Below the pieces are notes generated by a model. That model was not told where the DNA came from and made no database searches. It worked only from the letters and a program-made list of their open reading frames with translations. From contig CAVORE010000008.1 of the NCBI GenBank assembly GCA_963698525.1, positions 33,122 to 97,121 of the forward strand: a DNA stretch of 64,000 bases, written 5' to 3'. Positions 7,301-34,924 of the stretch are shown in pieces; position 1 is the stretch's first letter, and each line of letters opens with the position of its first letter. The stretch is from an uncultured Ignavibacteriaceae bacterium. GTDB taxonomy: Bacteria; Bacteroidota; Ignavibacteria; Ignavibacteriales; Ignavibacteriaceae. A program made the position numbers and the translations under genes.

Positions 7301-7551
7301 TTGTCAGATGGGTTATTTACGTAAACTCTGAACTGATAGCCATCATAGCGGTTAAGTCCATCAATTGTTCCAAGCCACAAATAACCCTGCTGATCTTGTA
7401 ACATCGCAAAAATAGTACTTTGTGAAAGCCCGTCTGCATCAGTAAATTGTTTGAAGATATATTCTTCAGTCTGAGGAAATGAAGAGATGGAAAGGAATAA
7501 AAACAGTATTACTTTTATAATGTTCATAGAATTAGAAGAAGTATCATCCAT
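4306..7551 (-). CDS. Hybrid-architecture sensor histidine kinase: signal peptide, two-component-regulator beta-propeller repeats + Y_Y_Y region, TM, HisKA_3/HATPase
   Basis: 1081 aa. It has many repeats of the type W(I/V)GT.GGGLN..., a TM segment WWFVTLVVLTVVFFIYY, then SDLHDNIGSGLTEI (H-box of the NarX/DesK type) and an ATPase region with NNAIKHSG...DDGAGF...GNGIRNM. It ends 17 nt upstream of its cognate regulator. Confidence 0.9.
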   Translation of the reverse strand: MDDTSSNSMNIIKVILFLFLSISSFPQTEEYIFKQFTDADGLSQSTIFAMLQDQQGYLWLGTIDGLNRYDGYQFRVYVNNPSDNTSISDNFISALYEDSEGFIWVGTVNGYFNCFDRKTEDFKRYFASDFFSSTKNPDTNFYEYPLAFSRNQINTITSITEDNEGFLWIGTWGNGIVKFDRKNKTGKHISYDKDNPTSLSSNRILDILLNTNSDIWIATFGGGLNKLNQDESAERHQENSKPASFLHYTSDKKNKNSLSDNKTITLFEDKDQNIWIGTFYGGLNKLDSFNNKLPPDEAKFISYNQKNSNLSNNTVMAIQQNPDGYLWVGTFGGGIDRFNISDDSFINFSKISSPQNVFPDVEILSLFVDRSGILWAGSHLGEGVTKIQKFKLKFGIINSKSTGSLKLNDDVVWSLFKDSKENLWVGTYRGGLNVLNFKTKQRQIYKKSGSKKFEISDNHIRSIAEDKFGNIWIGTYSGGLNRINSITGKIDLFKNVPEDSNSLSANQVLDIFIESENKIWVATFGGGLNELSFSENTSGVPQFKAYSHNPSDPSSLSDDRVYTILKVENKKFLVGTYGGGLNKFDENTGKFSAAFSDSENSRAALNDKILSLLISSDNTSWVGTSGGGLNKLNTSTNSFQNFSMAQGLSSAVVYGILEDSNSNLWLSTDDGIFLFDTATERFTQFGIEDGVQSLEFSGGAYFKDADGMMYFGGINGFNYFHPDSVAINQFVPSIVISDIKVMDVRIKGEPEELILSHDQNFVSIEFSALDFSIPKQNKYSYILQGFQETWISTDGTGRTATYTNLPSGEFTFLVKGTNEDGIWNENPASIKIIINPPFWETWWFVTLVVLTVVFFIYYIGTSRVKSQLEIEKLKLKIASDLHDNIGSGLTEISILSEVAERSDAHSSTVAKKDLQKISETARQLVDSMSDIVWVVNPQRDSLHDLIVKLKDSYNEFFSSIGISFQVNNIEKSDDIKLPMEYKQNLLLMFKEAINNAIKHSGCKKLVLEAFYKNDIIEIILKDDGAGFDLNKVKFGNGIRNMENRANKIKGKLSWKTEIGKSTTVIFSGKLGRLNRLKSLLK

Positions 7552-7832
7552 ATTTCTCTTAGGCGAAATATAGTAAATTGAATCATCATTTTAATTATAA
7601 CTTAGCTACGTATAGTTTGGGTTTCAATGAACTTTCATTTTGTACAACTTAGTGACTTAGCGTCTTTGTGGCTTAATTTCTTACTTATTTGTTTGCTACG
7701 AAACTGCCTGCCGGCAAGGCAGGGTCACAAAGAAATCATCAAATGCGTAAGGTTAATTATAATAAAAAATTGCTCATGTAGCTTTACACATTAAATTAAT
7801 TGATTGCAACATTATTTTTTTAACAAAAACGT

Positions 7833-8879
7833 ATGAGAAAAAAACTATCAGTCGAAACTATCAGACGTTTTTCTTCTGAAAAGTTTCATAAAATTTATTC
7901 TTTACCAATTGTAATTCTAATGCCTCACAGCAGATGTAATTGCCGTTGCGTGATGTGTGATATCTGGAAAGGGAATAATAATGTAAAGCAACTCGAAGAA
8001 AGCGATATTGAAAAATTATTAGTCTCAATGCACAGGTTGAACACAAAAATTATTGTTATGTCTGGTGGTGAAGCTCTTATGCATCCTAATTTCTTTAGGC
8101 TGTGCGAAATAATTAAAGCACAAAAAATTAAAATTACTCTACTATCTACCGGTTTGCTTTTGAAGAAATACGCTTCCGAGATTTTTTCAAAGACTGATGA
8201 AGTTATAGTTTCATTGGATGGTTCAAAAGAAGTGCACGATAAAATTAGGAACATTCCAAACGCTTTTGATAAATTGAAAGAAGGAGTGCAGGAGTTAAAA
8301 AAAATAAATCAGAAATTTAAAGTAACGGCACGCTGCGTAATTCAAAAAGAAAATTTTGAAGACTTTCCAAACATAGTTGATGCTGCAAAAGAAATAGGAC
8401 TTGATCAAATCAGTTTTCTAACTGCTGATGTTACAACCGATGCGTTTAACCGACCCGAATTATGGGATGATCAAAAAGTTGGTGAAGTTAAATTATCCCG
8501 AGATGAATTACCAAAGTTTAAAGAGATCATTGAATCACTAATAACTACGTACGCGAATGATTTCAAAACAAATTTCATTGCTGAATCACCCGATAAAATA
8601 AGACGATTTTACCATTACTATGCGGCGTATTATAGTGAGAGCAAATTTCCGAAGATGAAGTGTAATGCCCCGTGGGTTTCGGTTGTAATAGAAGCGGATG
8701 GAAGTGTGCGTCCTTGTTTCTTTCATCACGTAATTGGTGATATCAGGGAAAATTCTCTGGCTGAAATTATAAATTCAGAAAAATCAATATCATTCAGAAA
8801 AAATCTTGATGTTGCTACTAATTCAATCTGCGAGAAGTGTGTCTGTTATCTTAATCTTTCTCCGTTCGCAAAGTTATAA
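7833..8879 (+). CDS. Radical SAM enzyme with SPASM/twitch-type C-terminal Cys motif
   Basis: HSRCNCRCVMCDIW contains CxxxCxxC. The C-terminal CNAPWVSVVIEADGSVRPC (GxxxxC) plus CEKCVC match an auxiliary-cluster domain. Confidence 0.8.
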   Translation: MRKKLSVETIRRFSSEKFHKIYSLPIVILMPHSRCNCRCVMCDIWKGNNNVKQLEESDIEKLLVSMHRLNTKIIVMSGGEALMHPNFFRLCEIIKAQKIKITLLSTGLLLKKYASEIFSKTDEVIVSLDGSKEVHDKIRNIPNAFDKLKEGVQELKKINQKFKVTARCVIQKENFEDFPNIVDAAKEIGLDQISFLTADVTTDAFNRPELWDDQKVGEVKLSRDELPKFKEIIESLITTYANDFKTNFIAESPDKIRRFYHYYAAYYSESKFPKMKCNAPWVSVVIEADGSVRPCFFHHVIGDIRENSLAEIINSEKSISFRKNLDVATNSICEKCVCYLNLSPFAKL

Positions 8880-8916
8880 CGGCAGTACTCTTCTTCTAAA
8901 CCCGTACTACCTGGTA

Positions 8917-9600
8917 CTATTCGCTGTTGCTTTTAATGCTAAATATAAAATGATTTTCTCCCCACGTTTTTTTATGAATCACTTCTTCCATCCTAAAATT
9001 AAATTCTTCGGCAATTGAATTTATCATTTCCAGATCAGCTTCATCTGATAGCACCATAATTACATTTGTGTTCTCGTAAATATTTGTTCTAAGCTGATCA
9101 AACAATTTTCTGAAATACTGAAAATCATCTCCTCCATACCAGGCAAATTCTTTTTCACTCGCTGGAGTTCTTTTGTAGTAAGGCGGGTTGATAATTATAT
9201 AGTCATATCGCCTTTGTGGTATATCATCAAAAAGATCTGAGTGAACTACTTCAACATTTGCATTCGTCATCTTTACATTTTTCTCGATATTATAAACTGC
9301 AGTAAGACTTATATCGGATGCAGTAACATATCCACCTTTATTTGCCGTAATAATTGAAATCAATCCTGTACCAGCACCAAGTTCGAGAACATATTTTTTC
9401 TGAAATTCTAAATTCTCAATATAACCGAGCAGAAGTTTTGTGCTGAAGAAAAAACCCGGATGAAAAACTCCCGGAAATACTGTGACAGTTGCCCCTTTGT
9501 AACTGTAGCTTCTTTCTTTTGACAAATACTTTTCTGATGCGGGATATAGAATTCTGAAGGCAATACTTTTTAATAAACTTTTCTTTTTTTGAGGTTTCAT
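8917..9600 (-). CDS. Class I SAM-dependent methyltransferase, NPPY (HemK/RsmC-like small-domain) type
   Basis: VLELGAGTGLISI (motif I) and IIINPPYY (motif IV). Its start overlaps the stop of the upstream radical SAM ORF by 4 nt. Confidence 0.8.
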   Translation of the reverse strand: MKPQKKKSLLKSIAFRILYPASEKYLSKERSYSYKGATVTVFPGVFHPGFFFSTKLLLGYIENLEFQKKYVLELGAGTGLISIITANKGGYVTASDISLTAVYNIEKNVKMTNANVEVVHSDLFDDIPQRRYDYIIINPPYYKRTPASEKEFAWYGGDDFQYFRKLFDQLRTNIYENTNVIMVLSDEADLEMINSIAEEFNFRMEEVIHKKTWGENHFIFSIKSNSE

Positions 9601-10859
9601 TCAGTGTAAAATCCTTCCACTTCCGGTCTTCTATAATTCAGCCAGAATTTTTGAAGAGCCTTAAGCTCATACGGGAAATTATAAAAGTTGGTTTTATATC
9701 TTACTGAAGAAATAATTTTCATAACCTTTTTTTGGAAAGAAGTCAACTTGAAATCCGAAACAGTTGGGTATTGAGCATTGATAACTGTTTCAAAATTTAA
9801 AATCTTATTAACCATTTCCGCTGTAAGCCATGGAGTTAACGGATTTTTCCTCAAATCAAAATTTGCCCATTCAGGATTAAGCCAGTCTTCAAGCTTTTCA
9901 GGAAATCTGAATCCTGTTTTGACCACTTCGTTGTAAAGCTCAGATCCTTCTGTCGGTACAGGGCTATAAACATAAATAATTATTTCTGTATCAGGATTTA
10001 TTTCTTTTATCTGTTTTATGAATTGAATATCCTCATCAATCTGCTGCATAACTTTTTCAGGAGTTTCTGCAGGAAGTCCAAGTACAAAAGAATATTCTGG
10101 TATGATATCAAACTTTTTCATCCTGGCAGCAAATTTTTTTATTTGTTCACCGGTTTGAGTTCCGCCTTTATCCATTTGTTTGAGTATTGCATCGTTGCCG
10201 GTTTCTGCACCAAAGAAAATCATTCTGCATCCTGCTTCTCTCATTAAAGCAAGAGAGTCATCGCTGTATTTATGTATCGTATCAATCCTGCCTTCGCCCC
10301 ACCAAATAATATTTTCATTCTTTATCAGATTAGAAAACTCAACTGTTCTTTTCTCTGAGACAAAAAAATTGTTATCGTGGAATTCAACTGCATCTGCTCC
10401 AAATTTATCTTTCAGATATTTGATGTCTTTATAAATAAGCGAAGCTGATTTTCCTTTCCATCTTGCTTCATAGATCGGAACAACAGCACAGAAGGAACAT
10501 GTAAACGGACATCCGACACTTGAATGATAAGCTGCAGTTTTTGTTCCAAGAAAAGTTTTTCCAAGGTAGTGTTTCATCGGATACAAATTATTCAGCTTGT
10601 CGTAAGGAAGCGCAGGCAGAGTATCCTGATCAATTAAATCTGCTTTCGGAGTTTTTATGAATTCATTATTCTTTTTATAAATCAAATTCCTAACGGAAGA
10701 AGTGTCGTGATTATTTTCTAATGCAGCAAGAAGTTGTGGAAAGGCTTCATCACCCGGTCCGTTAATAACGTAATCAACAAATCCAGAGTTGAGGGCTACT
10801 TTATATTGATTGGCTGGAAAGTATCCACCCCAGATATTTATCACATCCGGGAAATTCAT
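9597..10859 (-). CDS. B12-binding radical SAM enzyme, radical SAM core (3' part of an apparently split gene)
   Basis: SSVGCPFTCSFCAV is CxxxCxxC. The N-terminal WGGYFP...INGPGDEAF is the tail of a cobalamin-binding Rossmann domain. It is paralogous to 14285-15697 and 16494-17966. Confidence 0.8.
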   Translation of the reverse strand: MNFPDVINIWGGYFPANQYKVALNSGFVDYVINGPGDEAFPQLLAALENNHDTSSVRNLIYKKNNEFIKTPKADLIDQDTLPALPYDKLNNLYPMKHYLGKTFLGTKTAAYHSSVGCPFTCSFCAVVPIYEARWKGKSASLIYKDIKYLKDKFGADAVEFHDNNFFVSEKRTVEFSNLIKNENIIWWGEGRIDTIHKYSDDSLALMREAGCRMIFFGAETGNDAILKQMDKGGTQTGEQIKKFAARMKKFDIIPEYSFVLGLPAETPEKVMQQIDEDIQFIKQIKEINPDTEIIIYVYSPVPTEGSELYNEVVKTGFRFPEKLEDWLNPEWANFDLRKNPLTPWLTAEMVNKILNFETVINAQYPTVSDFKLTSFQKKVMKIISSVRYKTNFYNFPYELKALQKFWLNYRRPEVEGFYTE

Positions 10860-11110
10860 TCCTTATTTTTTTGGTGATAAGGAATTGCCTGCTTTGGTTG
10901 CAAGCCCGGCATAACCGTGCAGCCAAAATATTTGTATTCACCTGTAACAAGGTAATTGGATATCGTCTTCCAGGGATCTTTCTCAAGATTTCCATCTACA
11001 AATATATAATCATACTTGCCCTCAATGGATGCACCAACCTGCAAAATTGAATTTGGAATTCTGTATTTTGAGTTGGCACTTCGTGGATTGAATAATATTA
11101 CTTTGTTCAT
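10856..11110 (-). CDS. B12-binding domain N-terminal fragment (84 aa), 5' part of the same split gene
   Basis: MNKVILFNPRSANSKYRIPNSILQVGASIEG...YKYFGCTVMPG aligns with the N-termini of the intact paralogs (MKLILTHGYF...PPLGILYISAFL and KKILFTHSYF...PPLGTIYAAAVM). Its TGA overlaps the next ATG (ATGA). Confidence 0.6.
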   Translation of the reverse strand: MNKVILFNPRSANSKYRIPNSILQVGASIEGKYDYIFVDGNLEKDPWKTISNYLVTGEYKYFGCTVMPGLQPKQAIPYHQKNKE

Positions 11111-11213
11111 TAAATAAGAATTTTTTTAACAGCTAAATTAAATAGGAAAAATTTTACTTTTATTTTAAAACCATAATGAGATTTATTCAAATTAAGAACC
11201 ATCAGCAATTGCA

Positions 11214-12350
11214 ATGAAAGTTACATTCGTAAATTACTACTATGACAAAGATATACCAATTGATAATTATTTAATTAAATATCCAACTATTCATGGGTGG
11301 TGCAAAGCTTTAATGCATTTGGGAACTCAGGTGGATGTTTATCATCGCTTCAGCAAGGATGGTGTTATTCAGAAAGACGGGGTCAATTATTTTTTAATTA
11401 AAGACGATAAAAAGTTTAACCTGAATTGGAATGAGAATCCAAAATCATTTCATGAAAAGATTTCAAATGGGAATAATGAAATAATTCATATCAATAGTTT
11501 TCGTTACGCTTATCAGGCATCGTTACTCAAACAGAAAATTCCTTCAGCAAAAATTATAATCCAGCATCACGCAGAAAAACCCGGACATATAATAAAGCGT
11601 TTTCTTCTTCGGAAATTTTCTTCTTCAGTAGATGGATTTATTTTTTCTTCAAAAGAGATTTATGAAGATTGGCTTGCTAAAAAAATAATCCCGAATGGAA
11701 AATATTTTGCCGAGATAATGGAAGGCTCTTCAGATTTTACTTATAAAAATCGTGATGAAGCAAGATTGATAACCGGCATATCAGGAAAACCTATACTTTT
11801 ATGGGTTGGCAGATTAAATGAGAACAAAGACCCAATTACTGTGTTGGCAGGATTTACAAAACTGCTAAATGATTTTCCGGAAGCGCGACTTTATATGGTG
11901 TTTTCCGATGATCAACTAAAGCAACAAGTTCTGTCAGTCATTGAACAAAATTCAATTTTAAAAAAATCCGTAACGCTTCCCGGATTTATTAATCACAAAG
12001 AAATTGATAGTTATTACAATAGTGCCGATTACTTTGTCTTGGGCAGCCACTATGAAGGTTCAGGCTTTAGTTTGGTGGAAGCAATGTCGTGCGGTGTTGT
12101 TCCGATTGTTACCGATATTCCATCGTTCAGAATGATAACGAACAAAGGACAAATTGGTGGATTGTGGAAATGCGGAGATGCTGATTCATTTTATAATATT
12201 GCAAAAAAAAATATTATCAAGCCTTTAGAAGTTGAATCGAAAAAATGTGTGGATTACTTTTCTGATAACCTGAGCTTCCCGGCTATCGCAAAAAAAGCTA
12301 AAATGTTTTATGAGAGTTTAGTTAATAACTCATCTAACGCAGTGAAGTAA
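11214..12350 (+). CDS. Glycosyltransferase, GT4 (GT-B, retaining) family
   Basis: C-terminal EGSGFSLVEAMSCGVVPIVTDIPS is an E(x7)E-type GT1/GT4 signature. 378 aa. Confidence 0.85.
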   Translation: MKVTFVNYYYDKDIPIDNYLIKYPTIHGWCKALMHLGTQVDVYHRFSKDGVIQKDGVNYFLIKDDKKFNLNWNENPKSFHEKISNGNNEIIHINSFRYAYQASLLKQKIPSAKIIIQHHAEKPGHIIKRFLLRKFSSSVDGFIFSSKEIYEDWLAKKIIPNGKYFAEIMEGSSDFTYKNRDEARLITGISGKPILLWVGRLNENKDPITVLAGFTKLLNDFPEARLYMVFSDDQLKQQVLSVIEQNSILKKSVTLPGFINHKEIDSYYNSADYFVLGSHYEGSGFSLVEAMSCGVVPIVTDIPSFRMITNKGQIGGLWKCGDADSFYNIAKKNIIKPLEVESKKCVDYFSDNLSFPAIAKKAKMFYESLVNNSSNAVK

Positions 12351-12480
12351 CTAGTACAGAGATGCCATCTTTATATTTTATTAAATTTCAAACAAATTTA
12401 ACATTAACAATTCAATTCAAGTTCCGACTTAATTATTGAAAAGATGGCATCTCTTGGTTTTGCGTAAGGTGAATTAATAA

Positions 12481-13551
12481 TTAGTTGGATGAAATTCCGT
12501 AGAATGAAGCATATCTTTCAACTGTTTCCGGTAGTGGAAATAAATTAACAGGTTCAAAGTTCAAATTTTCACTCAATAGTTTTTTAGTGATTCTGATAAA
12601 ATCATTTTCATCTCTGGCAATAAACCATTTAGGATGTTCCTGAGCATAGCCCACATTGAATGAAACTAAGTTCATTCCGTTTGCAAGTGCTTCTGCAAAA
12701 ACAAATCCTGAACCCTCAAACTTTGATGGGTGAATTAATATCTTACTTCTTTGCATCAGCTTAAAAATTTCTTTACGATCAATTAAGCCGGTGAATTCGA
12801 GATTATTTGCTATTCCATAAGCTTCTGCCATTTCTTTTAATTTAGTTGATTGAGGACCTGTTCCGACAAGCTTGCATCTCAAATCAGGTTTCTTCTTCAC
12901 AATTTCTGCTATTGTTTTTATAAAGAGTGAATAATTTTTTAAAGGAATTAGCGAACCAATTCCTAATAAATCAACATCCCTTTCATGAGAGTTTATTTGT
13001 TGGTCATCAATTCCCCAATGAATAATTTCGTCAACCGCTCTGTTTGTTAAATTCAAAAAGTTCTGTGCTTGATTTTCTGATAAAGCTATGATTTTGATCT
13101 TTTTACTTTCTGAAAGTTTTAAATATCTGTTATTCGCTTTAACATCCTGTCCCATCAGTGTGCAAATATGCTGACAGCCAAATCTTTTAGATAAAATGTT
13201 ACCGATCATCGCACATTCACCCAGCCAAAGTGAGTGAACCACATCAACCGGATTTGTTTTGTGAATTTTTTTTGCTTCTCGAATGGCTTTTAACCAAACG
13301 AAAGGCTTTTTGAACTTCAAATTATTTCCACCAAGTGGATTAATGGTAATCCCTTTCCAGTTGTAAGTCTCATGTTGATAGGGATATTGAAATGAGATGA
13401 CTGAAATATTTATCAGAGGAAATTCTGATCTAAATTTACTTAAAAATTCCTGTAACGGAGGAATACAATTAAAATCATTTTCGTCTTTAGGAAAGCCCGG
13501 CACTAAATAAAGTATATGAGTTGCTGCATTCATTTTTTTATTTTTATCCAT
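12481..13551 (-). CDS. Glycosyltransferase, GT4 family
   Basis: HPSKFEGSGFVFAEALANGMNLVS signature. It is the last gene of the minus-strand operon that starts at 18892. Confidence 0.8.
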   Translation of the reverse strand: MDKNKKMNAATHILYLVPGFPKDENDFNCIPPLQEFLSKFRSEFPLINISVISFQYPYQHETYNWKGITINPLGGNNLKFKKPFVWLKAIREAKKIHKTNPVDVVHSLWLGECAMIGNILSKRFGCQHICTLMGQDVKANNRYLKLSESKKIKIIALSENQAQNFLNLTNRAVDEIIHWGIDDQQINSHERDVDLLGIGSLIPLKNYSLFIKTIAEIVKKKPDLRCKLVGTGPQSTKLKEMAEAYGIANNLEFTGLIDRKEIFKLMQRSKILIHPSKFEGSGFVFAEALANGMNLVSFNVGYAQEHPKWFIARDENDFIRITKKLLSENLNFEPVNLFPLPETVERYASFYGISSN

Positions 13552-14321
13552 GGAAAAGGGGAGTCCTTGATAGAGAACAATCTTTTCAATCTTCCGGTAA
13601 TTGAATGCGGAGCGTAAAGAATATTATAATTATAACCAGTCAGTACATCCCAGGAATGATGGTGATAATTTTCTGCCATTTCCCTAAAACTCATTGATGA
13701 ATAATATTCCTTTGTTCGTTGTCTGGCATTAACTACTTCCGCCGGGGTGTAAACAGGAGAATCAATAATATGAACCTCACCATTTTCTTTCAATAACTCC
13801 AGGCACCGATCCACAAGAGTTTTTAAATCAGTAAAGTACTGGATAGCAGCATTGATTATTATTACATCAAAAAAAACATTAGGGAATTCCGATTTAAATA
13901 TGTCTGCATAAATGAATTTCAGATTATCAGAGTTAAAAACTCTTTGCGCTTGTGTTAATTCGGTCAGGTTTATATCAACACAATAAAAATTGTGAGTAAA
14001 TGATCTTGAAAGCTGTCCGCAAAACCATCCGTTGCCGCATCCAAGATCGAGAATATTAAGTTTCAGTTCTTTTGATTGGAGATATTTTCTGAATCGTTGA
14101 AAAGATTTAGCTCTTAAATTCCATTCCTTTTTATGTGGATTGGATACAGAAGCAAAAGGCAGGTTTAGTAATTCCTCATCAGAATAAATTCTTTTTTCCT
14201 TCTCTCTCACTTTCAAATAAATAGATTCAAATTCATTATTTATTTTGGTGAGAATATAAACACCATTGCGATTGTCGGCAGAGTTTAATTTGAAGTCATC
14301 CATTTCGATTTTCGTATCCAC
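13530..14321 (-). CDS. Class I SAM-dependent methyltransferase
   Basis: ILDLGCGNGWFCGQL (motif I) and FDVIIINAAIQY (motif II/III region). It overlaps both neighbouring genes. Confidence 0.85.
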   Translation of the reverse strand: MDTKIEMDDFKLNSADNRNGVYILTKINNEFESIYLKVREKEKRIYSDEELLNLPFASVSNPHKKEWNLRAKSFQRFRKYLQSKELKLNILDLGCGNGWFCGQLSRSFTHNFYCVDINLTELTQAQRVFNSDNLKFIYADIFKSEFPNVFFDVIIINAAIQYFTDLKTLVDRCLELLKENGEVHIIDSPVYTPAEVVNARQRTKEYYSSMSFREMAENYHHHSWDVLTGYNYNILYAPHSITGRLKRLFSIKDSPFPWIKIKK

Positions 14322-15697
14322 AACATTCCAGCTTTAGCGGCATATGATTTTAATTTTAACTTTAATACTTCTGCACCGTTAGACCCATTATTTTTTTTCT
14401 GATGTAGCCTAACTTCATTAACTACACGACGGACTGCAAAGTCATAGTATTTCTTCGGGTAAGTTCTTACAAAGTCTCTATCCCTGTCAGTTTGTTTTTC
14501 CCAATCGAATACGTTGACCTGGTTGGATTCAATTTCCCCGAAAAATTCCGTACCCTTAATCGGGTAAGCTACTGTAATTGTAAAATGATCAGGGTTGGAT
14601 TTTTTCAGGTGGCTGATTGTTTCTTCAATATCTCTTTCTGTTTCACCGGGATATCCAAGCATAATAAAAGTGCCGGCTTCAATTCCATATTTTCTGGAAA
14701 GCTGAATCATCTCACGAACTTGCTCAACTTTTACTCTCCTGTCCATCGCATCTATTATTCTTTGTGAACCACTTTCTGCACCAATCCAAACTCTGAAGCA
14801 CCCCGATTCTTTAATTGTTTTTATAACATCTTCGTTCAATCTGTCAGCACGAGTTATGCACTCATATTTTATTTTCAGATTACTCTTTTTCAGTTCTTCA
14901 TTGAAACCCGATAACCATTTATGACTTATTGTAAAAACATCATCAACAAACCAGATGGTGTCCGGATTGTAATTTGCTTTTATATGTTTTACTTCCTCGA
15001 CAACTTTTTGAGGTGATCTTCTCCTGTAAGTTAAACCATATACCGCCCGGCTGCACCATCGGCAAGTGTAAGGGCAGCCTCTCATAGTGCTGACAGAAAT
15101 TGCATTCTGGCCATGACGTTTTTTCCAGGCATCCTGATATTTACTTATATTTATTCCTTCCCGGTTTGGAACCGGCAATGTGTTAATATCCGAAATTAAT
15201 TTTCTTTCTGGATTGAAAACTATTTTACCGCCGTCATCCTTAAATCCAATACCATTTATTTCTTCGAAAAGAATTTTAGAATTCTTCTGAAGACTGCGTA
15301 CTAATTCAAGTGTAGTTTCCTCACCCTCACCGATTACTATGAAGTCGGCACCATGTTCAAGTAAGTCAGTTGCGTTGTAACGTACTTCCGGCCCGCCAAG
15401 AATAATTTTGGCATTCTTGATTGAGTCAGTAGATTTAATGAACCTAATGATCTCAAGAACATTTAGCTTTGTCACGAGATTAACATATATAGCAACGCAG
15501 TCCGGCTTTTCTTCAATTAAATATTTTTTCAATTCATCTTTGGAAGAAAAAGTCGTGTCAAATATTTTATTTTCAATTCCATTTTCTTTTAAGAAAGCAG
15601 AGATATAGAGGATACCTAATGGAGGGTAGGGTTTCATAATCCTTTGCTCGGCAGGATCATCGTTCAGAAAATAACCGTGTGTAAGAATTAGTTTCAT
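14285..15697 (-). CDS. B12-binding radical SAM enzyme
   Basis: The N-terminal Rossmann-type B12-binding region ends in ILGGPEV...FIVIGEGEETTLELV. MRGCPYTCRWCS is CxxxCxxC. 470 aa. Confidence 0.85.
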   Translation of the reverse strand: MKLILTHGYFLNDDPAEQRIMKPYPPLGILYISAFLKENGIENKIFDTTFSSKDELKKYLIEEKPDCVAIYVNLVTKLNVLEIIRFIKSTDSIKNAKIILGGPEVRYNATDLLEHGADFIVIGEGEETTLELVRSLQKNSKILFEEINGIGFKDDGGKIVFNPERKLISDINTLPVPNREGINISKYQDAWKKRHGQNAISVSTMRGCPYTCRWCSRAVYGLTYRRRSPQKVVEEVKHIKANYNPDTIWFVDDVFTISHKWLSGFNEELKKSNLKIKYECITRADRLNEDVIKTIKESGCFRVWIGAESGSQRIIDAMDRRVKVEQVREMIQLSRKYGIEAGTFIMLGYPGETERDIEETISHLKKSNPDHFTITVAYPIKGTEFFGEIESNQVNVFDWEKQTDRDRDFVRTYPKKYYDFAVRRVVNEVRLHQKKNNGSNGAEVLKLKLKSYAAKAGMLWIRKSKWMTSN

Positions 15698-16494
15698 GAC
15701 TTCACCTGGAATTGAATCAGGTAATGATCGGATGAGCCGGAAAAAAAACTGAATCCATAAATTGCTTGTTCTAATTTTTTCAGAGCGTTAAATATCTTAT
15801 TTCTGGAAGAAAAAAAGTTATCCAGATATGATGGTGGAATGAAAAATCCTACAGGTTTGACTGATATTAATTTAAAGTTTTGCGCAAAAATCTTTTTTAC
15901 TTTTAATGGTGAATGATAGTAAATATTTACATCTGAACCATTGAGTTTTACGGCTATAGCTTTTTCAGAAAACCTTCTGAAAGCTTTTTTGAAATTCAGT
16001 TTCAAAAGGAAATAGAATGTTTCCCAAAAACAAAAAGTTGGCATTATCACCATTATTATCTGCCCATTTGGGTTGAGTAACTTTGTTATTTCTGTAGACA
16101 GCTTTTCCATTTCCTTAAATGATATACAATTCAACCCGCCAAAGTTTGAAAAAATCAAATCGAATTTTTCATTGAATACTGTGTAATCAATTTTGCTTAT
16201 ATCGAGCTTCATAGTTTTAATGAGCGAATCCAGACCTGCATCACTAATTTTTTTTTGTGCAATTGCCAGCATATTTTCTGAAATATCAGTAGCTAAAACA
16301 TGATGCCCTCGCTTACCAAACCACACCGCATCTTCACCTGTTCCACAATTCAATTCAAGCACATTCAATTTTTCTCCCGATGATATAGATCTTTCAAGGT
16401 AATTCCAGACTATGTTTCTTTGAGCTTTACCAATGAAGCTATTCGTAAATGATGCATCATAATCATTTGCAATTGTATCGAAAGCCTGCTGCAT
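15694..16494 (-). CDS. Class I SAM-dependent methyltransferase (type 11/12-like)
   Basis: VLELNCGTGEDAVWF (motif I) and FDLIFSNFGGLN. It has a 1-nt overlap upstream and a 4-nt overlap downstream. Confidence 0.85.
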   Translation of the reverse strand: MQQAFDTIANDYDASFTNSFIGKAQRNIVWNYLERSISSGEKLNVLELNCGTGEDAVWFGKRGHHVLATDISENMLAIAQKKISDAGLDSLIKTMKLDISKIDYTVFNEKFDLIFSNFGGLNCISFKEMEKLSTEITKLLNPNGQIIMVIMPTFCFWETFYFLLKLNFKKAFRRFSEKAIAVKLNGSDVNIYYHSPLKVKKIFAQNFKLISVKPVGFFIPPSYLDNFFSSRNKIFNALKKLEQAIYGFSFFSGSSDHYLIQFQVKS

Positions 16495-17966
16495 CAGCTT
16501 ACTTTTTCTAATCTCTTAAGCTGGAAGGCATCAAGAAGAGTCATCGGGGAATAATAAACTAAAGCCGCGGCAGAGCGGAGTTTTTTTCTGTTAACGTTGA
16601 AAGGATTAAGAATCAGATTTTTCAGATTTAAAAAACTTTGCTTGCGTCTGTAAACTTTATGAACATACCTGTGAAGTTTTTTATAGTATGAAGGAGAGAA
16701 AGTGCCTTTGTACATAAGAGCAAGTTCATCTGAATCCGTCCAGTTAGTTTTCACTTTCAATTGCTCTTTTACTTTGTCGTAAAATTTTGTTCCCGGTAGG
16801 GGATAGGAAACAGAAATACCAATTTCTTCAGGCATCAGATCAAGAACCATGTTAATTGTCTGTTCAATGTCATTCTTTTCTTCACCGAGATAACCAAATT
16901 GCAAAAAGAAAGCCGGTCGGATTCCATTTTTTTTCAGAAGTCTTGTCGCTTCATAAATTTGTTCAACTGTTGTTCCTTTATCCATCGAATCAAGAATTTT
17001 TTGAGAGCCGGATTCTGCACCAACCCAGACTGTTTCTGCTCCTGACTGAGCAAGTGCTGTAATTGTATCCTCCTGCAAAAGCAAATCAACTCTTGACTGA
17101 ATTTTGTATTTGAATTTCAGATCTTTTGATTTTACAATATCTCTGAATTCCTGAACCCAGCCGGGTTTCAAACCAAAAATATCATCGCACATCCAGAAAT
17201 GATTCACGTCAAAGTTCTTCATTAAGTATGCAATTTCTTCAGCTACTTTTTTTGGGGAACGAGAATTATACCTGTTGCCGTAAATCGGTTTTGCGCACCA
17301 GTTACATTTGAATGGACATCCGCGGGTCGTCGCAATGTTAAGTGAAAAATACCCGTAATTTTCAATCCATATTTTTTTATAAGATGGAACATCAATCAAA
17401 TCCCATGCAGGCATCGGGAAGGTGTCGAGTTCTTTAACTATTTGTCTTGCTGCAGTTCGGATAATTTTTTCGTTTTCCTTATATGCAAGTCCATCAATGT
17501 TATTAAATATCGTTTCACCTTTATCTAAAGAAGTAACAAGTTCTTTAAGAGTTACTTCACCTTCACCAATAACTACAAAGTCAACACCGTGGTCAAGATA
17601 CTTTTCAAAATGATCTGCAGCGTCCGAGCTTGAAGCGATTACTCTCAAACCATTATTTTTGGCAATCTCAGCCATTCTGAAAGCTGCTTCACGCATGTTA
17701 GTCAGACACATTTTCGTCAGGTAATTAAATCCGTCATCATAAATCACGAGATAATCAGGCTTTTCATTTTTAATAACGGGAATTATTTTTTCGGGGGAAT
17801 CAAGTAGTGCAGTATCAAACAGTGAAATATTGTAACCGGCTTCGCGCATAACTGCGGCAGCATAAATTGTCCCAAGCGGCGGGTAAGGTTGTTTGGTGTT
17901 CCATTGCTTGGTATCGAACCTGTAGAAATATGAGTGTGTGAAAAGAATTTTTTTCATTTGGGTCAA
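16494..17966 (-). CDS. B12-binding radical SAM enzyme
   Basis: FVVIGEGEVTLKELV marks the end of the B12-binding domain. TTRGCPFKCNWCAKP is CxxxCxxC. 490 aa and a clear paralog of 14285-15697. Confidence 0.85.
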   Translation of the reverse strand: MTQMKKILFTHSYFYRFDTKQWNTKQPYPPLGTIYAAAVMREAGYNISLFDTALLDSPEKIIPVIKNEKPDYLVIYDDGFNYLTKMCLTNMREAAFRMAEIAKNNGLRVIASSSDAADHFEKYLDHGVDFVVIGEGEVTLKELVTSLDKGETIFNNIDGLAYKENEKIIRTAARQIVKELDTFPMPAWDLIDVPSYKKIWIENYGYFSLNIATTRGCPFKCNWCAKPIYGNRYNSRSPKKVAEEIAYLMKNFDVNHFWMCDDIFGLKPGWVQEFRDIVKSKDLKFKYKIQSRVDLLLQEDTITALAQSGAETVWVGAESGSQKILDSMDKGTTVEQIYEATRLLKKNGIRPAFFLQFGYLGEEKNDIEQTINMVLDLMPEEIGISVSYPLPGTKFYDKVKEQLKVKTNWTDSDELALMYKGTFSPSYYKKLHRYVHKVYRRKQSFLNLKNLILNPFNVNRKKLRSAAALVYYSPMTLLDAFQLKRLEKVS

Positions 17967-18892
17967 AGCGAAATTCTAAGCTTCTGCTCCAGTGATTTTA
18001 TTTTGTTGTCATACTCCTCTAAAACTTTCTTCTGAAAAAATTTTGGATGATGCTTGGATTCTTTCTTTGATGACTTAAATGCAATCTTGAATTCATCCGG
18101 ATTATAATTTTTATACTTTCTTTTATTATACTTTTCAAACAGTGCCATCGCAAAGTCATCTATTTTATCACCAAGACTTTTGCTCAGGATCTTTTCTAAA
18201 GATGATTTAAGCCATCCATTTTTTTTCTCGATTATTTCCTTTGTTCCTCTTTTAGGAAAATTAGGATAAAATTCTTTGGCCCAGCTATTTTTTTCGTAGA
18301 ACTGCTCATAAAAGTCTTTTCCGAATGTAGGCAGAAGCGTTACCGTTTCAGTTGCTGTAAATATATTTTTTTCGTGAATTTCAAGATTTTCTGAATCAAC
18401 AAAATAATTAATGCAAAATATCTTTTTTGAGTTGAATAAAACTATCTTTTTAAACACCATCAACATTAATTTTGAAAACCAAACCCTGTTTGGATGAGTA
18501 ATAATAAAGTAATCGATATCAGAATCTTCTTCCATGAAACCTTTTGAGATTGAACCCGAAAGCAAAATACCCCGAATGAATGGAAATCCTGATATAAAAC
18601 CAGAGACTCGTCTGGCAGTTTTCAATCTCTTCTCTGCTAGGTCATTACCAGTTTTTCTGCGATTGATGTAGTTATCGTTATTCTTAAGCAGGAAGAATTC
18701 GTCTTTCTGATAAACAAATTGATGTGCAGATAAATTTTTTAAAACACTTTTTACTTCATCGAGGCTGGTATGGTTATCTCCCAGATTATAATAAATTTCA
18801 TCAGCAGTTAATGGATAGGAAAAAATATCATAGTAAGCGAGAGTACGCAAAATACTTCGCCTCAAACGTGTTAATTGATGGTCGTTATCCAA
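17963..18892 (-). CDS. Nucleotidyltransferase-domain protein (Pol-beta superfamily) with N-terminal winged-helix-like region
   Basis: GILLSGSISKGFMEEDSDIDYFIIT matches the GS...DxD nucleotidyltransferase signature. It is the first gene of the operon. Confidence 0.6.
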   Translation of the reverse strand: MDNDHQLTRLRRSILRTLAYYDIFSYPLTADEIYYNLGDNHTSLDEVKSVLKNLSAHQFVYQKDEFFLLKNNDNYINRRKTGNDLAEKRLKTARRVSGFISGFPFIRGILLSGSISKGFMEEDSDIDYFIITHPNRVWFSKLMLMVFKKIVLFNSKKIFCINYFVDSENLEIHEKNIFTATETVTLLPTFGKDFYEQFYEKNSWAKEFYPNFPKRGTKEIIEKKNGWLKSSLEKILSKSLGDKIDDFAMALFEKYNKRKYKNYNPDEFKIAFKSSKKESKHHPKFFQKKVLEEYDNKIKSLEQKLRISL

Positions 18893-19038
18893 ATTATTCT
18901 TAAATCTTTGTTTATTAAAGAGGTTCTCCTAATTCTGCCTTCAAGTTAAGAAAATTATAGTATAGTTCTCAAGTCCTCTCACGGGGTTATTAATTTTAAT
19001 TGAGTGAATTTTGACAAGTATTTACTATTTTAATTTTT

Positions 19039-20856
19039 ATGAGAAATAAGAATTATTTGCCACCGAAAAAGAAATACGGCGGATTAAGTATTTTGTACGG
19101 AATTACCTTCCTTTCTCCATTAACATATTCGATGATTGTGTATGAAATGGATGTAGTTCAAAGGATGGTCTTCTTTTGTCTTTCACTTATTTTATTCCTG
19201 GTATTTATTCTCAAACTAAAAACTGATGATTCAATCCGGCTTCATAAGTATTTGACTGTTTTGATTATTCTGTTTCCTTTTACTTTTCTTACAGCCTTCG
19301 TGAACGACAGCGAGTCGCTGCTGCTTTTAAAATTTAGTGATATAATCATTCCGCTTTCAATTATCCTGCAATCTTCAATAGTGTTTTTCATTCTTGGTGA
19401 AGAAAAATTTTTTAGAGTAGTTTCCTACGCTGTGGTGATACTATCAACCGTTTTCAGTTTAATTGGTATATTAGAAATTCTTGAGATAAATATACTTTCA
19501 CTACCGACTGTCGTTCCACCAGGTTCTGTGCTGGGGCACAGAGGTTTTGCTGCTGAGTATCTGTTGTCTGCAATACCATTCATTTTAATTGCAAATGAAT
19601 ACATCAAAAAAGATAAAAAGTATCTGTTAATAGTTTCGGCGATGATTAATATTTCATTTTTGCTTTTTACCCGCAGTCGTGCCGGACTAATAATCTTAAT
19701 TTTTTCTGTCTTAATCTATATTGCTTTCATTTTTATTAACAGAAAGAAGGGAAGGAGATTAAAAACGTTGATTCCGGTTTTGGCAGTGGTAATTAGTTCT
19801 TTCTTCATTTCCTTAATTCCGGTTAAAATTGGTGAGAGACCAGACTTTACATCTACGGCAGATACTTTTTTTGACGAAAATTTTAAAAGTAATATGCTTC
19901 GCCTGAATTTTCTGGATGCTACTTTACAAATGATTAAAGAAGATCCAGTCATGGGTAAAGGATTGTTTAAGTGGAGTGGGTACTATCCTAAATATCATGG
20001 CGAATATTTTAACGACAAAAATTTGTTCTATGTTCATAACGTACATGCTCATAATGATTTTCTTGAAATATTTGCTGAGAGCGGTTTAGCATCTGCATTA
20101 ATTTTTGCGCTGATCTATTTTACAATTGCTTTCATACTTTTTAAAAGAAGCTGGAAAAATGAAAAATACTTTCCGTTGTTTTTAACTATTCTTATTACTG
20201 CCGGATTTTCTTTTTCTTCTTTCCCTAATCATAAATTTGCATCATATTTTCTTGCGGCAGTGGTGAGTGGAACGGCTTTGGTTTCTTCTGCTGAATATGG
20301 GAATAAGAGCATTACAATAAAATTTGATAATCTTAAATGGGTTCTGCTCGTTCTGATATTTCTTGGAGGGATTGTTTCTTACATTAAGCTCAAATCAGAA
20401 ATAAGCTACGGACAAGCAATTTACCTGAAGGAAAATAGGCAATACCCATTAATGCTTCAGAAGTTGGAAGAAATATCAAATATTTTTTATCCGCTGGATT
20501 CATCAAAACAACCTGTTGATTATTATCGGGGTATAGCAAATTCCTATTTGGGAAGAAATGCAGAAGCGTTGAATAATACTCTCTCTGCCCGGCAATTAGC
20601 ACCATTTAATCCAATTGTTTGGCGAAATATAGCTGGTGCATACCGGTCATTGGGAAATATTAATAGTGCTGTTGAACAATATGAAAATCTCAGGCATCAA
20701 TTCCCAAATTACATAAATGCTCAACTTAATCTTCTCGACATATACATTGAATTGGGACATACTGAACAAGCTAAACTTCTCTACTCAGAAATTTCAGGCA
20801 AATCTCCTGACAATCCACGCCTTCAAGAATACAAAAATAAATTTCCGACCGACTAA
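19039..20856 (+). CDS. O-antigen ligase/polymerase-like (Wzy_C) membrane protein with C-terminal TPR repeats
   Basis: About 10 or more hydrophobic segments. HNVHAHNDFLEIFAESGL resembles the Wzy_C/O-antigen-ligase loop. The C-terminal 150 aa carry TPR-like repeats (YYRGIANSYLGRNAEAL..., WRNIAGAYRSLGNINSAVEQY...). Confidence 0.75.
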   Translation: MRNKNYLPPKKKYGGLSILYGITFLSPLTYSMIVYEMDVVQRMVFFCLSLILFLVFILKLKTDDSIRLHKYLTVLIILFPFTFLTAFVNDSESLLLLKFSDIIIPLSIILQSSIVFFILGEEKFFRVVSYAVVILSTVFSLIGILEILEINILSLPTVVPPGSVLGHRGFAAEYLLSAIPFILIANEYIKKDKKYLLIVSAMINISFLLFTRSRAGLIILIFSVLIYIAFIFINRKKGRRLKTLIPVLAVVISSFFISLIPVKIGERPDFTSTADTFFDENFKSNMLRLNFLDATLQMIKEDPVMGKGLFKWSGYYPKYHGEYFNDKNLFYVHNVHAHNDFLEIFAESGLASALIFALIYFTIAFILFKRSWKNEKYFPLFLTILITAGFSFSSFPNHKFASYFLAAVVSGTALVSSAEYGNKSITIKFDNLKWVLLVLIFLGGIVSYIKLKSEISYGQAIYLKENRQYPLMLQKLEEISNIFYPLDSSKQPVDYYRGIANSYLGRNAEALNNTLSARQLAPFNPIVWRNIAGAYRSLGNINSAVEQYENLRHQFPNYINAQLNLLDIYIELGHTEQAKLLYSEISGKSPDNPRLQEYKNKFPTD

Positions 20857-23728: not shown

Positions 23729-25261
23729 GTGTCTAAAAAATTTACTTGTTTTGTAGTTGGTGAAGATTCACTTCTTATTAAATGCTGTGAAACTCTCCTG
23801 GATAAGTCGCACGATATATTTGGAATAATCTCATCAAGTCAATCAATAAAAAAATGGGCATCAGAAAATAACATAAAAGTTTATGAGTTAGACGCAAACC
23901 TTATTAGTGTATTATCTTCAAAACCTTTCGATTACCTTTTCAGTATTACAAATTTGTCTATCCTAAAAGATGAAGTTATTAATTCTCCTCGTAAAGCGGC
24001 AATAAACTTTCACGACGGACCGTTACCAAAATATGCAGGAATCAACGCAACATCCTGGGCATTGATGAATCGGGAAAAGAAATATGCAATTACGTGGCAT
24101 GAAATAACCAGTGAAATTGATAAGGGCGATATTTTAAAGCAGGTTCATTTGGTTATTGATGATGGAGAAATTGCACTTTCACTGAATGCAAAATGTTTTG
24201 AAGCAGGAGCTTCTGCTTTTGAAGAATTAGTTGAGGAACTAGCTAATGGAACTGTCCAGAGAATTAAACAGGATTTTTCAAAAAGATCATATTTCGGCAA
24301 ATTTAAAAGACCTGATTCTGCTGCAATTATTGATTGGAACAGTGATGCTGAAAGTATTTTGTCATTTGTTCATGCACTAAATTTTGGCAGGTATAGAAAT
24401 CCTCTTGGACTGCCGAAAATAAAAATTGGTGAAAAGTATTTTCTTATTCCGGAACTTGAAATTACTAATCCAAAATCAAAAGAGGCACCTGGAACAATTA
24501 CGGCAGCCAATGAAAAATACTTTGAGGTTTCAACAAAGACTAATTCTGTAAGATTTAGTAAAGTTCTTTCAATTGATGGTTTAGCAATTTCATTGGTGAA
24601 CCTGATCGAGCAATTTTCATTAAAATCAGGAACAAGATTAAATCAGGTTGACGGCGGATCCTCTAAAAGCATAACGGAATTCAATTCAGTTATTGCGAAT
24701 AAAGAAAATTATTGGATTAGAGAGCTAACAAATCTTGAAGCGATTAATTTTAATTATACAAAGCGAAATTCGAAAAGTGATCATTTAGCTGATCCAGCCG
24801 AAGAATATTTAAAGATTTCTAAAAAAGCTTTTAGCACATTTAAGATTGATGAGAACCAACTTCCAACACTTATCCTTTCTCTTTTTTCAATCTTCATTGG
24901 TCGCCACAGCGGAAAGAATAATTTTACTCTTGGATATTCTAATTCAGAATTACTGGAGAATCAGAAAAAGTTCGGAAACCTATTTGCAGAGATTGTTCCC
25001 GCTAATATTTATTTTAATCCTGAAGAGAGCCTTAATGATGCTGTAATTAAGTTAATTGAGGGATTTAATAAAATTGATAAGAATAAAACATTCATAAAAG
25101 ATGTTTTCCCACGTCATCCGGAATTATTACACTTTGTAAATGAAGGCGGAGAACCTGTTTATCCAGTTGCTGCTGTGATCATTAAAGATCAATCTGATTT
25201 TAAGCCTCAGCCAAGCAACGTATTGACTTTTGTCATTTCCTCAGATTGTAGTACCGATTAA
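23729..25261 (+). CDS. NRPS starter fragment: formyltransferase (F) domain + C-terminal lobe of a condensation-like domain (frame-broken from the next ORF)
   Basis: GTG start. INFHDGPLPKYAGINA (Fmt Asn/His motif), HEITSEIDKGDIL (catalytic Asp region) and an Fmt C-terminal subdomain (IDWNSDAESILSFVHAL). From about residue 320, ENYWIRELTNLEAINFNYTKR... is typical of the second half of C domains. There is no HHxxxDG. Confidence 0.75.
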   Translation: MSKKFTCFVVGEDSLLIKCCETLLDKSHDIFGIISSSQSIKKWASENNIKVYELDANLISVLSSKPFDYLFSITNLSILKDEVINSPRKAAINFHDGPLPKYAGINATSWALMNREKKYAITWHEITSEIDKGDILKQVHLVIDDGEIALSLNAKCFEAGASAFEELVEELANGTVQRIKQDFSKRSYFGKFKRPDSAAIIDWNSDAESILSFVHALNFGRYRNPLGLPKIKIGEKYFLIPELEITNPKSKEAPGTITAANEKYFEVSTKTNSVRFSKVLSIDGLAISLVNLIEQFSLKSGTRLNQVDGGSSKSITEFNSVIANKENYWIRELTNLEAINFNYTKRNSKSDHLADPAEEYLKISKKAFSTFKIDENQLPTLILSLFSIFIGRHSGKNNFTLGYSNSELLENQKKFGNLFAEIVPANIYFNPEESLNDAVIKLIEGFNKIDKNKTFIKDVFPRHPELLHFVNEGGEPVYPVAAVIIKDQSDFKPQPSNVLTFVISSDCSTD

Positions 25262-28412: not shown

Positions 28413-28463
28413 AAATATTATCTGAAAAGATAATGAAATCAATAACTAATTATTAGGTGTAAA

Positions 28464-29414: not shown

Positions 29415-29430
29415 GAAAAGGAGTAAAAAA

Positions 29431-34912: not shown

Positions 34913-34924
34913 GTAACTGATTAG

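Follow-up and report, generated by a model that had tools for sequence, protein, structure and literature searches.

We analysed a 64-kb stretch of DNA from an Ignavibacteriaceae bacterium (referred to here as the window) and focused on a locus at positions 7833-20856, which encodes three cobalamin (vitamin B12)-type radical S-adenosylmethionine (SAM) enzymes (rSAM), class I SAM methyltransferases (MT) and glycosyltransferases (GT). An earlier interpretation of the same DNA, made from its letters only (the sequence-only reading), had listed the open reading frames (ORFs) of this locus together with their domains and overlaps, and all of these were recovered in our ORF map and in Pfam searches. 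The genes, with protein lengths in amino acids (aa), are as follows.

17963-18892, minus strand: NT, nucleotidyltransferase-like protein, 309 aa; opens the core operon
16494-17966, minus strand: rSAM-A, B12-binding radical SAM enzyme, 490 aa
15694-16494, minus strand: MT-A, class I SAM methyltransferase, 266 aa
14285-15697, minus strand: rSAM-B, B12-binding radical SAM enzyme, 470 aa
13530-14321, minus strand: MT-B, class I SAM methyltransferase, accessory, 263 aa
12481-13551, minus strand: GT4a, GT4-family glycosyltransferase, 356 aa; Glycos_transf_1 87 bits
11214-12350, plus strand: GT4b, GT4 glycosyltransferase, convergent; Glycos_transf_1 86.5 bits
9597-11110, minus strand: rSAM-C, interrupted (10856-11110, 84 aa, and 9597-10859, 420 aa)
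8917-9600, minus strand: MT-C, methyltransferase with an NPPY motif; MTS domain 63.5 bits
7833-8879, plus strand: SPASM-domain radical SAM enzyme; Radical_SAM 72.4 bits, SPASM 53.6 bits
19039-20856, plus strand: Wzy_C/TPR membrane protein, divergent from the core operon; Wzy_C 68.1 bits, TPR_19 35.9 bits

The genes of the minus-strand operon overlap at every junction, by 4, 1, 4, 37 and 22 nt in 5' to 3' order, and a further 4-nt overlap joins rSAM-C and MT-C. The value of 22 nt depends on the start codon that is assigned to GT4a. The second ATG, at 13533, would give a canonical 4-nt ATGA junction (13530-13533), and the GT4a of a close relative, which is called as a protein of 350 aa (locus L003 of the comparison described below), agrees with this start; 13533 is the likely true start of the gene. 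A scan of the locus for promoters and terminators gave a signal no higher than background. No Rfam family reached its gathering score across the 64 kb; thus, no cobalamin riboswitch was found near the three B12-type genes.

In the window, rSAM-C is divided into two ORFs that are joined by an ATGA overlap. Its orthologues are intact (e.g., 503 aa in L001), and an alignment at the DNA level revealed two additional single bases in the window, about 30 nt apart and near 10870-10900, in comparison to all relatives. The net +2 shift explains the stop and the restart. A natural two-gene form of rSAM-C was therefore rejected. The remaining 420 aa are 86% identical to the closest orthologues, and the split appears to be either an indel error of the assembly or a very recent inactivation. 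A frameshift of its own, at a different site, is present in the rSAM-C gene of L003 (L003:14461-15973), and in the same relative the gene for the gamma subunit of a 2-oxoacid:ferredoxin oxidoreductase (POR) is split (L003:2512-3109). These two cases suggest that indel errors are frequent in this series of metagenome-assembled genomes (MAGs).

Conservation and partner units of the module

One genome per GTDB species was scanned for relatives of rSAM-B, which yielded 591 stretches, and the best 80 of these were inspected. Sufficient flanking DNA was available for 57 loci, on which the locus proteins were mapped by tblastn; these are the loci that are counted in the following. The best 80 of the 591 stretches belonged to Ignavibacteria and Bacteroidota (Cytophagales, Chitinophagales, Saprospiraceae and Flavobacteriales). 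Close homologues of rSAM-B, with 65-85% identity, were found in Ignavibacteriaceae and Ignavibacteria MAGs, and the cultured carriers among the best 80 were Fulvivirga, Ohtaekwangia, Chryseolinea and Emticicia (56-84% identity). Orthologues of rSAM-A were 53-86% identical across Ignavibacteria and Bacteroidota. The core order NT, rSAM-A, MT-A, rSAM-B recurred across both groups, and the Wzy_C/TPR gene occupied the same position in the relatives from Ignavibacteria. Since the arrangement is found again in dozens of independent genomes, it is far from what chance would produce.

The sequence-only reading had described the locus as an island, a term that these data do not support. The GC content of the locus is flat and equal to that of its flanks, the locus genes of two relatives lie between the same POR and hybrid histidine kinase genes, and the core is common to two phyla. 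A horizontally acquired island was thus rejected on the basis of the even GC content and of synteny that extends to the POR and kinase genes on either side. The locus is a conserved chromosomal module of Ignavibacteria and many Bacteroidota and is not specific to one strain.

Within the module, the genes recurred in particular combinations. MT-A was the gene immediately upstream of rSAM-B in 49 of the 57 loci. In 43 loci rSAM-A occupied its expected position, and NT directly preceded rSAM-A in 43. An orthologue of rSAM-C was present at most 10 kb from rSAM-B in 34 loci, and in 25 of 35 cases MT-C was encoded on the same strand just downstream of rSAM-C, at a distance of no more than 1.5 kb. 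MT-B followed rSAM-B in only 15 loci; it was present at L041 and L079, where MT-A is missing. The Chitinophagales displayed the order MT-A, rSAM-B, GT4, rSAM-C, MT-C, NT, rSAM-A, in which MT-A stays with rSAM-B and NT stays with rSAM-A. Two gene fusions were observed. An uninterrupted protein of 803 aa from a Cytophagales MAG (L041:7345-9756) is a natural fusion of NT and rSAM-A; it recurs in an independent assembly, and no further fused cluster was detected among the 120 best matches. The second fusion (P0326, 630 aa) combines a GT4a-like domain (31% identity, E 2e-51) with an MT-A orthologue (42% identity, E 2e-70) and is encoded directly upstream of rSAM-B. An apparent fusion of MT-A and rSAM-B in L022 was discarded, as it resulted from a spurious upstream extension of the ORF in a high-GC genome.

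An all-against-all comparison of the locus proteins identified rSAM-A and rSAM-B as paralogues over their full length (34% identity). The third enzyme, rSAM-C, is distant and shares 24-26% identity with either of them; the three MTs are mutually about 26% identical, over the Rossmann core. Because paralogy, rearrangements and fusions give each rSAM a different set of partners, the locus does not consist of three copies of one rSAM-MT unit, as the sequence-only reading had proposed from the order of genes in the window. The units that emerge from the rearranged loci and the two fusions are NT with rSAM-A, MT-A with rSAM-B (at times together with GT4a) and rSAM-C with MT-C, and MT-B is optional.

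Several loci contained additional genes. A compact variant of the locus (L084, GCA_964422885.1, 1-13300) encodes all three rSAMs, with the GT4a::MT-A fusion at 10001-11893, and a fourth B12-type rSAM (L084:5637-7058) that is 28-30% identical to rSAM-C. In some Ignavibacteria a protein of 338 aa with seven hydrophobic segments, which has no match in Pfam or NCBIfam, is encoded between MT-A and rSAM-B (L001:8988-10004; also L009). L001 carries a PMT_2-like GT-C enzyme in place of MT-B.

Other parts of the window harbour a nonribosomal peptide synthetase (NRPS)-type cluster of about 18 kb (23729-41356, plus strand), which lies between the POR genes and a gene for an M24 aminopeptidase. It encodes a formyltransferase, a protein with AMP-binding, luciferase-like and peptidyl carrier protein (PCP) domains, a small radical SAM protein, a hexapeptide-transferase/PCP protein, a condensation-adenylation-nitroreductase-PCP module (C-A-nitroreductase-PCP) and a two-module NRPS. 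As the POR genes directly adjoin the M24 aminopeptidase gene in L001 and L003, the cluster is a strain-specific insertion. Two paralogous outer membrane proteins of the OmpA/thrombospondin-repeat type are encoded at 43221-44582 and 47597-49342. Located between them (45198-47350) are genes for a GFO/IDH/MocA oxidoreductase and a DegT/EryC1 aminotransferase, a pair typical of amino-sugar synthesis.

Family assignment of the locus enzymes

All three rSAMs of the core contain the radical SAM motif CxxxCxxC, which was read from the sequences as CPFKCNWC in rSAM-A, CPYTCRWC in rSAM-B and CPFTCSFC in the third enzyme. The Radical_SAM domain (PF04055) was detected at 76.8 bits in rSAM-A, 92 bits in rSAM-B and 50.5 bits in rSAM-C. 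The B12-binding domain (PF02310) scored 63.8 bits in rSAM-B and 32.3 bits in rSAM-A (cut-off of 32.1); in rSAM-C the match was weak and was seen only in the intact orthologue. None of the four rSAM proteins of the locus reached the cut-off of any curated NCBIfam family. The highest scores were obtained with BchE (TIGR02026, cut-off of 481.35), at 190.5 bits for rSAM-B, 183.9 bits for rSAM-A and 117.5 bits for the rSAM-C fragment. HpnJ (cut-off of 577.6) gave 150.9 bits for rSAM-B and 137.6 and 99 bits for the other two, and HpnR (cut-off of 650) gave 130.6 bits for rSAM-B and 93.4 and 40.4 bits for the others. The ladderane-type lipid B12 rSAM family TIGR04072 (cut-off of 360) scored 154 bits with rSAM-B and 114 and 52 bits with the others. 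Scores for the three enzymes were 168, 104 and 106 bits with PhpK (cut-off of 600) and 121, 96 and 85 bits with the Sden_1168 P-methyltransferase (cut-off of 575). MgmA (TIGR04014, cut-off of 360) gave 110-118 bits. The best match among solved structures was MgmA/QCMT (9ccb; 73 bits for rSAM-A and 82 bits for rSAM-B), followed by AprD4, TokK, CysS and OxsB, all of which are distant. The database names of the homologues are generic ("B12-binding domain-containing radical SAM protein", or the automatic names "BchE" and "YgiQ").

Membership in a characterised rSAM subfamily was thus rejected, since the NCBIfam cut-offs were not reached and the neighbours in the Protein Data Bank (PDB) are distant. 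Together with the fact that no description of the module was found in the literature, this agrees with the statement of the sequence-only reading that the locus fits no characterised pathway. A recent review distinguishes more than 100 sequence groups of B12-type rSAMs, most of them uncharacterised; every network group with a characterised member contains C-methyltransferases, and homologues of AprD4 and ArsL have related domains yet do not bind cobalamin (PMC12931638, 2026). We place rSAM-A, rSAM-B and rSAM-C in unassigned subfamilies of class B rSAM; they are candidates for cobalamin binding and methyl transfer. A role in defence was rejected, as PADLOC returned only generic matches to MT domains or the rSAM core (mad2, pVip and PDC-M51A, 30-66 bits). 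The fourth radical SAM enzyme belongs to the SPASM/twitch class (PF13186, 53.6 bits versus a cut-off of 21.5). It matched no specific equivalog (at best NirJ1, 82 versus 650 bits; BlsE, 56 versus 400 bits), and its closest solved structures were BlsE and SkfB (about 41 bits). With at least 45% identity it was found in 9 of the 57 loci, and it is a lineage-restricted accessory.

The best family match was a different one for each MT (UbiE/CpaM-like for MT-A, BioC-like for MT-B and HemK/RsmC-like for MT-C), and the three enzymes are assigned to different class I subfamilies. MT-A matched Methyltransf_25/11 in Pfam and CpaM in NCBIfam (64 bits versus a cut-off of 180); its homologues comprised 660 representatives at E<=1e-30, nearly all of about 265 aa. 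MT-B matched Methyltransf_11/25 and, best in NCBIfam, BioC (71 versus 185 bits). MT-C carries the motif IIINPPYY and scored 83.8 bits with TIGR00537 (cut-off of 87) and 63 bits with PrmC (cut-off of 199), and MJ0882, RsmC and METTL21 were its closest solved structures. It is predicted to be a HemK/RsmC-like enzyme of the N-methyltransferase type. A phosphonate or phosphocholine pathway was rejected as well: the structures nearest to the MTs are phosphoethanolamine N-methyltransferases, at 33-38 bits, which reflects a generic class I likeness, and phosphoenolpyruvate (PEP) mutase, LicC and LicD were not found near the core loci. Relatives of GT4a or GT4b were present in 28 of the 57 loci, and GT4b was 70% identical in the closest relatives (L003-L005 and L010). 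The Wzy_C protein contains its domain at 68.1 bits (PF04932, cut-off of 31.7) and displays eight hydrophobic windows, which makes it a candidate O-antigen ligase, polymerase or PglL-type oligosaccharyltransferase (OTase).

The assignment of NT is the weakest of the locus. Its Pfam match, NTP_transf_2, scored 21.1 bits against a cut-off of 21; the motif GS-x10-DxD (GS-x10-DID in the window protein) was invariant among 30 orthologues. An AlphaFold (AF2) model with a mean confidence (pLDDT) of 74 displayed a winged helix, a minimal nucleotidyltransferase core and a helical C-terminal domain. The best Foldseek matches of this model were MNT antitoxins and the aminoglycoside nucleotidyltransferase ANT(4'), which at E>=0.015 (probability of 0.89-0.98) are not significant. 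The motif and the model lend support to the assignment, and NT is a putative winged-helix protein with a minimal nucleotidyltransferase domain of the Pol-beta type and a helical C-terminal domain.

Glycan context and possible function

Glycan genes adjoin the module in both phyla, and the surface-glycan context that the sequence-only reading had suspected was thereby corroborated. Among 121 neighbouring ORFs from 13 Bacteroidota loci, the most frequent families were Glycos_transf_1 (11) and GT2 (7), followed by TPR_19 (5) and by ABC_tran, GT87 and Wzy_C (4 each). The neighbours in Ignavibacteria comprised GT4 and GT87 glycosyltransferases, PMT_2-like and MptA/B-like GT-C enzymes and Wzy_C/TPR proteins. 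In Ohtaekwangia and Emticicia we found GT2, GT4, GT9 and GT87 glycosyltransferases, FkbM methyltransferases, an acyltransferase_3 protein and a capsule-synthesis protein, and in L084 a GT9 and a polysaccharide deacetylase. Cytophagales loci encode an ATP-binding cassette (ABC) half-transporter of about 580 aa directly after rSAM-B or MT-B (L028:11423-13183 and L041:12124-13863); equivalents exist in the loci of Fulvivirga and Chryseolinea, and the window has none. This transporter scored best on PglK, a flippase of lipid-linked oligosaccharides, and on MsbA, in both cases below the cut-off. The core enzymes are without transmembrane segments, with one hydrophobic window in MT-A, and the Wzy_C and GT-C proteins are polytopic.

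We consider it well possible, if somewhat short of probable, that the locus builds and tailors a lipid-linked surface glycan, either of the lipopolysaccharide (LPS)-core/O-antigen type or a related glycoconjugate. The glycan context, the transporter, the transmembrane pattern and the GT4a::MT-A fusion led us to propose that tailoring takes place in the cytoplasm and is followed by flipping and by periplasmic ligation or extension. Soluble cytoplasmic enzymes would work before export, with sugars attached by the GT4-family transferases. The targets of the three cobalamin-type rSAMs would be unactivated carbons, either in a sugar or in a substituent that it carries, with C-methylation or alkyl extension as the most likely reaction, and every rSAM would cooperate with one dedicated priming partner. 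The nucleotidyltransferase-like protein may tag the substrate of rSAM-A with a nucleotide handle. MT-A, which is at times fused to GT4a, would methylate a heteroatom of the newly added sugar, and rSAM-B would next act on or beside the site methylated by MT-A. MT-C would pair with rSAM-C, and the nitrogen of an amino or amide group is the probable site of action of this pair. A flipping step would follow, performed in the Cytophagales loci by the PglK/MsbA-like ABC transporter, and on the periplasmic side the Wzy_C/TPR protein and the GT-C enzymes would ligate or extend the product. Our data show the gene content and its conservation, the units and fusions, the neighbouring glycan genes and the position of the rSAMs outside all curated families; what the scheme says about the substrate, the radical chemistry, the sequence of steps and the final acceptor is inferred.

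Radical C-alkylation was proposed because of two published precedents, whose logic the first two partner pairs would follow. In one of them, the synthesis of fosfomycin, Fom1 cytidylylates its substrate, and the B12-type rSAM Fom3 then methylates the molecule tagged with cytidine monophosphate (CMP) (PMC8158854). In the other, the synthesis of cystobactamid, the class I O-methyltransferase CysF makes a methoxy group that the B12-type rSAM CysS extends to ethoxy, isopropoxy and butoxy groups (PMC12846815). The pair of MT-C and rSAM-C may follow this second logic too, at a nitrogen. The sequence-only reading had been puzzled by methyltransferases beside rSAMs that are often methylases themselves, and both precedents offer an answer to that puzzle. 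Since the methyl group transferred by CysF is the substrate of CysS, the presence of an MT beside a class B rSAM does not imply redundancy.

Several observations weigh against this interpretation. The locus revealed no gene for an initiating phosphoglycosyltransferase. Its glycan neighbours are not the same in all lineages, which could mean that the acceptor differs or that they are only loosely associated with the module. The two fusions are rare, and each forms a single cluster at 90% or 50% identity. The nucleotidyltransferase assignment is weak, with a Pfam score at the threshold and Foldseek E values of at least 0.015, and nucleotidyltransferases of the Pol-beta type do not have the usual sugar-activating fold. 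The best family matches of the rSAMs, far below their cut-offs, include non-methylases (BchE and HpnJ) and lipid enzymes, and no sequence feature tells methylating from other B12-type rSAMs (PMC12931638).

The latter point bears directly on the possibility that the rSAMs perform a non-methylating reaction on the sugar (ring contraction or cyclitol formation, C-C bond formation, dehydration or oxidation, as in HpnJ-, OxsB-, BchE- or AprD4-type enzymes), with all methyl groups supplied by the MTs. BchE and HpnJ head the NCBIfam matches, AprD4 and OxsB are among the closest solved structures, and non-methylating members are indistinguishable by sequence (PMC12931638). The GT9 and polysaccharide deacetylase genes by the module in L084 would also fit, considering that in hopanoid synthesis HpnJ takes its turn once a glycosyltransferase and a deacetylase have acted. 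However, these matches lie 2.5- to 5-fold below the cut-offs and are no nearer than the methylases PhpK, HpnR and MgmA, and the tight, conserved coupling to class I MTs fits the logic of methyl extension; we regard a non-methylating role as unlikely. We assign a similarly low probability to the idea that the same enzymes serve a protein-attached glycan, as part of the general protein O-glycosylation of Bacteroidota, with the Wzy_C/TPR protein as OTase or ligase and the PglK-like ABC transporter as flippase of the core glycan. PglL-type O-OTases carry Wzy_C domains, TPR domains are suited to protein binding, and the ABC transporter scores best on PglK. Moreover, a 2025 review states that an OTase, a ligase and a core-glycan flippase have yet to be discovered for this pathway and that methylation of its glycans is common (PMC12871550). 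Nevertheless, the presence of GT9, a heptosyltransferase family, beside the core points to the LPS core, and the Wzy_C/TPR gene adjoins the core mainly in Ignavibacteria. Furthermore, the best 80 of the 591 matches included no named species of Bacteroides, Tannerella or Flavobacterium, the genera in which such O-glycans were solved.

A lipid target appears less likely still. In that case the module would methylate, cyclise or cross-link the alkyl chains of a glycolipid or membrane lipid, similar to hopanoid methylases and to rSAM enzymes of the ladderane or tetraether type, and the GTs would add only the head group. The scores of rSAM-B with TIGR04072 (154 bits), HpnJ (151 bits) and HpnR (131 bits), the glycolipid synthases within GT4 (GT4b scored 43 bits on the monoglucosyldiacylglycerol [MGlcDAG] synthase) and the hydrophobic window of MT-A would be compatible with a lipid substrate, but every score is far below its cut-off, no conserved fatty-acid, isoprenoid or polyketide genes lie beside the core, and the Rosetta-stone fusion links MT-A to a glycosyltransferase and not to a lipid enzyme. 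Least of all do we expect that the MTs reload the cobalamin of their partner rSAMs by CpaM-like corrinoid methylation or that the module modifies a peptide or protein in the manner of ribosomally synthesized and post-translationally modified peptides (RiPPs). CpaM is the best NCBIfam match of MT-A, but its 64 bits amount to a third of the cut-off of 180, and class B rSAM methylases load their own cobalamin from SAM (PMC12846815). For a RiPP-like role, the winged helix at the N terminus of NT is similar to small recognition domains, and RiPP C-methyltransferase models score 89-95 bits. Yet Foldseek returned no structural matches of NT that resemble a RiPP recognition element (RRE), the intergenic gaps of 38-147 bp within the locus leave no space for a precursor peptide (a 282-bp gap just upstream of the locus, at 7551-7833, lies outside this comparison), and a peptidase domain is missing from the ABC transporter, which resembles flippases of lipid-linked glycans and lipid A. 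On these three grounds a RiPP system was rejected.

To return to the lipid-linked surface glycan, a more far-reaching version, which we regard as rather doubtful, is that sugars of a glycan shared by Ignavibacteria and many Bacteroidota carry alkyl groups installed by radical chemistry (C-methyl groups, or methyl groups lengthened to ethyl or more), through three new subfamilies of class B rSAM that are each primed by a partner, with a nucleotide handle or an O- or N-methyl group. Cobalamin-dependent rSAMs have been described chiefly in connection with antibiotics, pigments, hopanoids and the modification of archaeal enzymes. Radical-installed alkyl groups on such a glycan, if confirmed, would be the first case in which class B rSAM chemistry contributes to the primary assembly of an envelope glycan; vitamin B12 would be required for normal envelope biogenesis in these bacteria, and its availability would be tied to envelope structure in bacteria of soil and water. 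The occurrence of a three-rSAM module, 55-85% conserved, in the glycan loci of two phyla points to a widespread, uncharacterised modification of surface sugars, for which the module provides defined and testable partner pairs. As several cultured carriers exist (e.g., Chryseolinea serpens DSM 24574, Ohtaekwangia koreensis DSM 25262 and Fulvivirga imtechensis AK7), genetics and glycan analysis are feasible. The results could also bear on the missing transferase, ligase and flippase steps of protein O-glycosylation in Bacteroidota (PMC12871550).

Comparison with known systems

The pair of NT and rSAM-A resembles Fom1/Fom3 in that a nucleotidyltransferase precedes a B12-type rSAM; the gene for NT precedes that for rSAM-A, and in one lineage the two form a single fused gene. 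The two systems differ in context, as no phosphonate genes (such as PEP mutase) are present in or near the locus and rSAM-A scores below the cut-offs of the phosphonate models. To our knowledge, the transferase of Fom1 is not of the Pol-beta/MNT type that is predicted for NT. The reaction of Fom3, methylation of an sp3 carbon in a nucleotide-tagged substrate (PMC8158854), is the step that rSAM-A might share. In the case of CysF/CysS, an MT followed by a B12-type rSAM that extends the methyl group is mirrored by the adjacency of MT-A and rSAM-B. However, the substrate of CysS is a carrier-bound aromatic acid of an NRPS pathway, whereas the module is found in a glycosyltransferase context, and the similarity of CysS to the locus rSAMs amounts to just 32-38 bits.

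The BchE/BchQ/BchR and HpnJ/HpnP/HpnR enzymes, BchE-like class B rSAMs from bacteriochlorophyll and hopanoid synthesis, share with the locus rSAMs an N-terminal B12-binding domain and an rSAM core, and BchE is the best profile (184-190 bits). Many BchE paralogues are found in the Chlorobi, to which Ignavibacteria form the sister group. The scores are, however, 2.5- to 5-fold under the cut-offs, and no tetrapyrrole or hopanoid genes lie near the locus. MgmA/QCMT, the closest solved structure, acts on a glutamine of methyl-coenzyme M reductase, an archaeal protein that is absent from these bacteria. In gentamicin biosynthesis, the class B rSAM C-methylases GenK and GenD1 act on (amino)sugars together with the class I N-methyltransferases GenN and GenL. 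GenK and GenD1 are listed as Csp3-methyltransferases (PMC12931638), and a further likeness is the presence of the aminoglycoside nucleotidyltransferase ANT(4') among the structural neighbours of NT. Gentamicin is a product of actinomycete secondary metabolism; in contrast, the module described here is chromosomal, occurs phylum-wide and is found in envelope-glycan loci that lack aminocyclitol genes.

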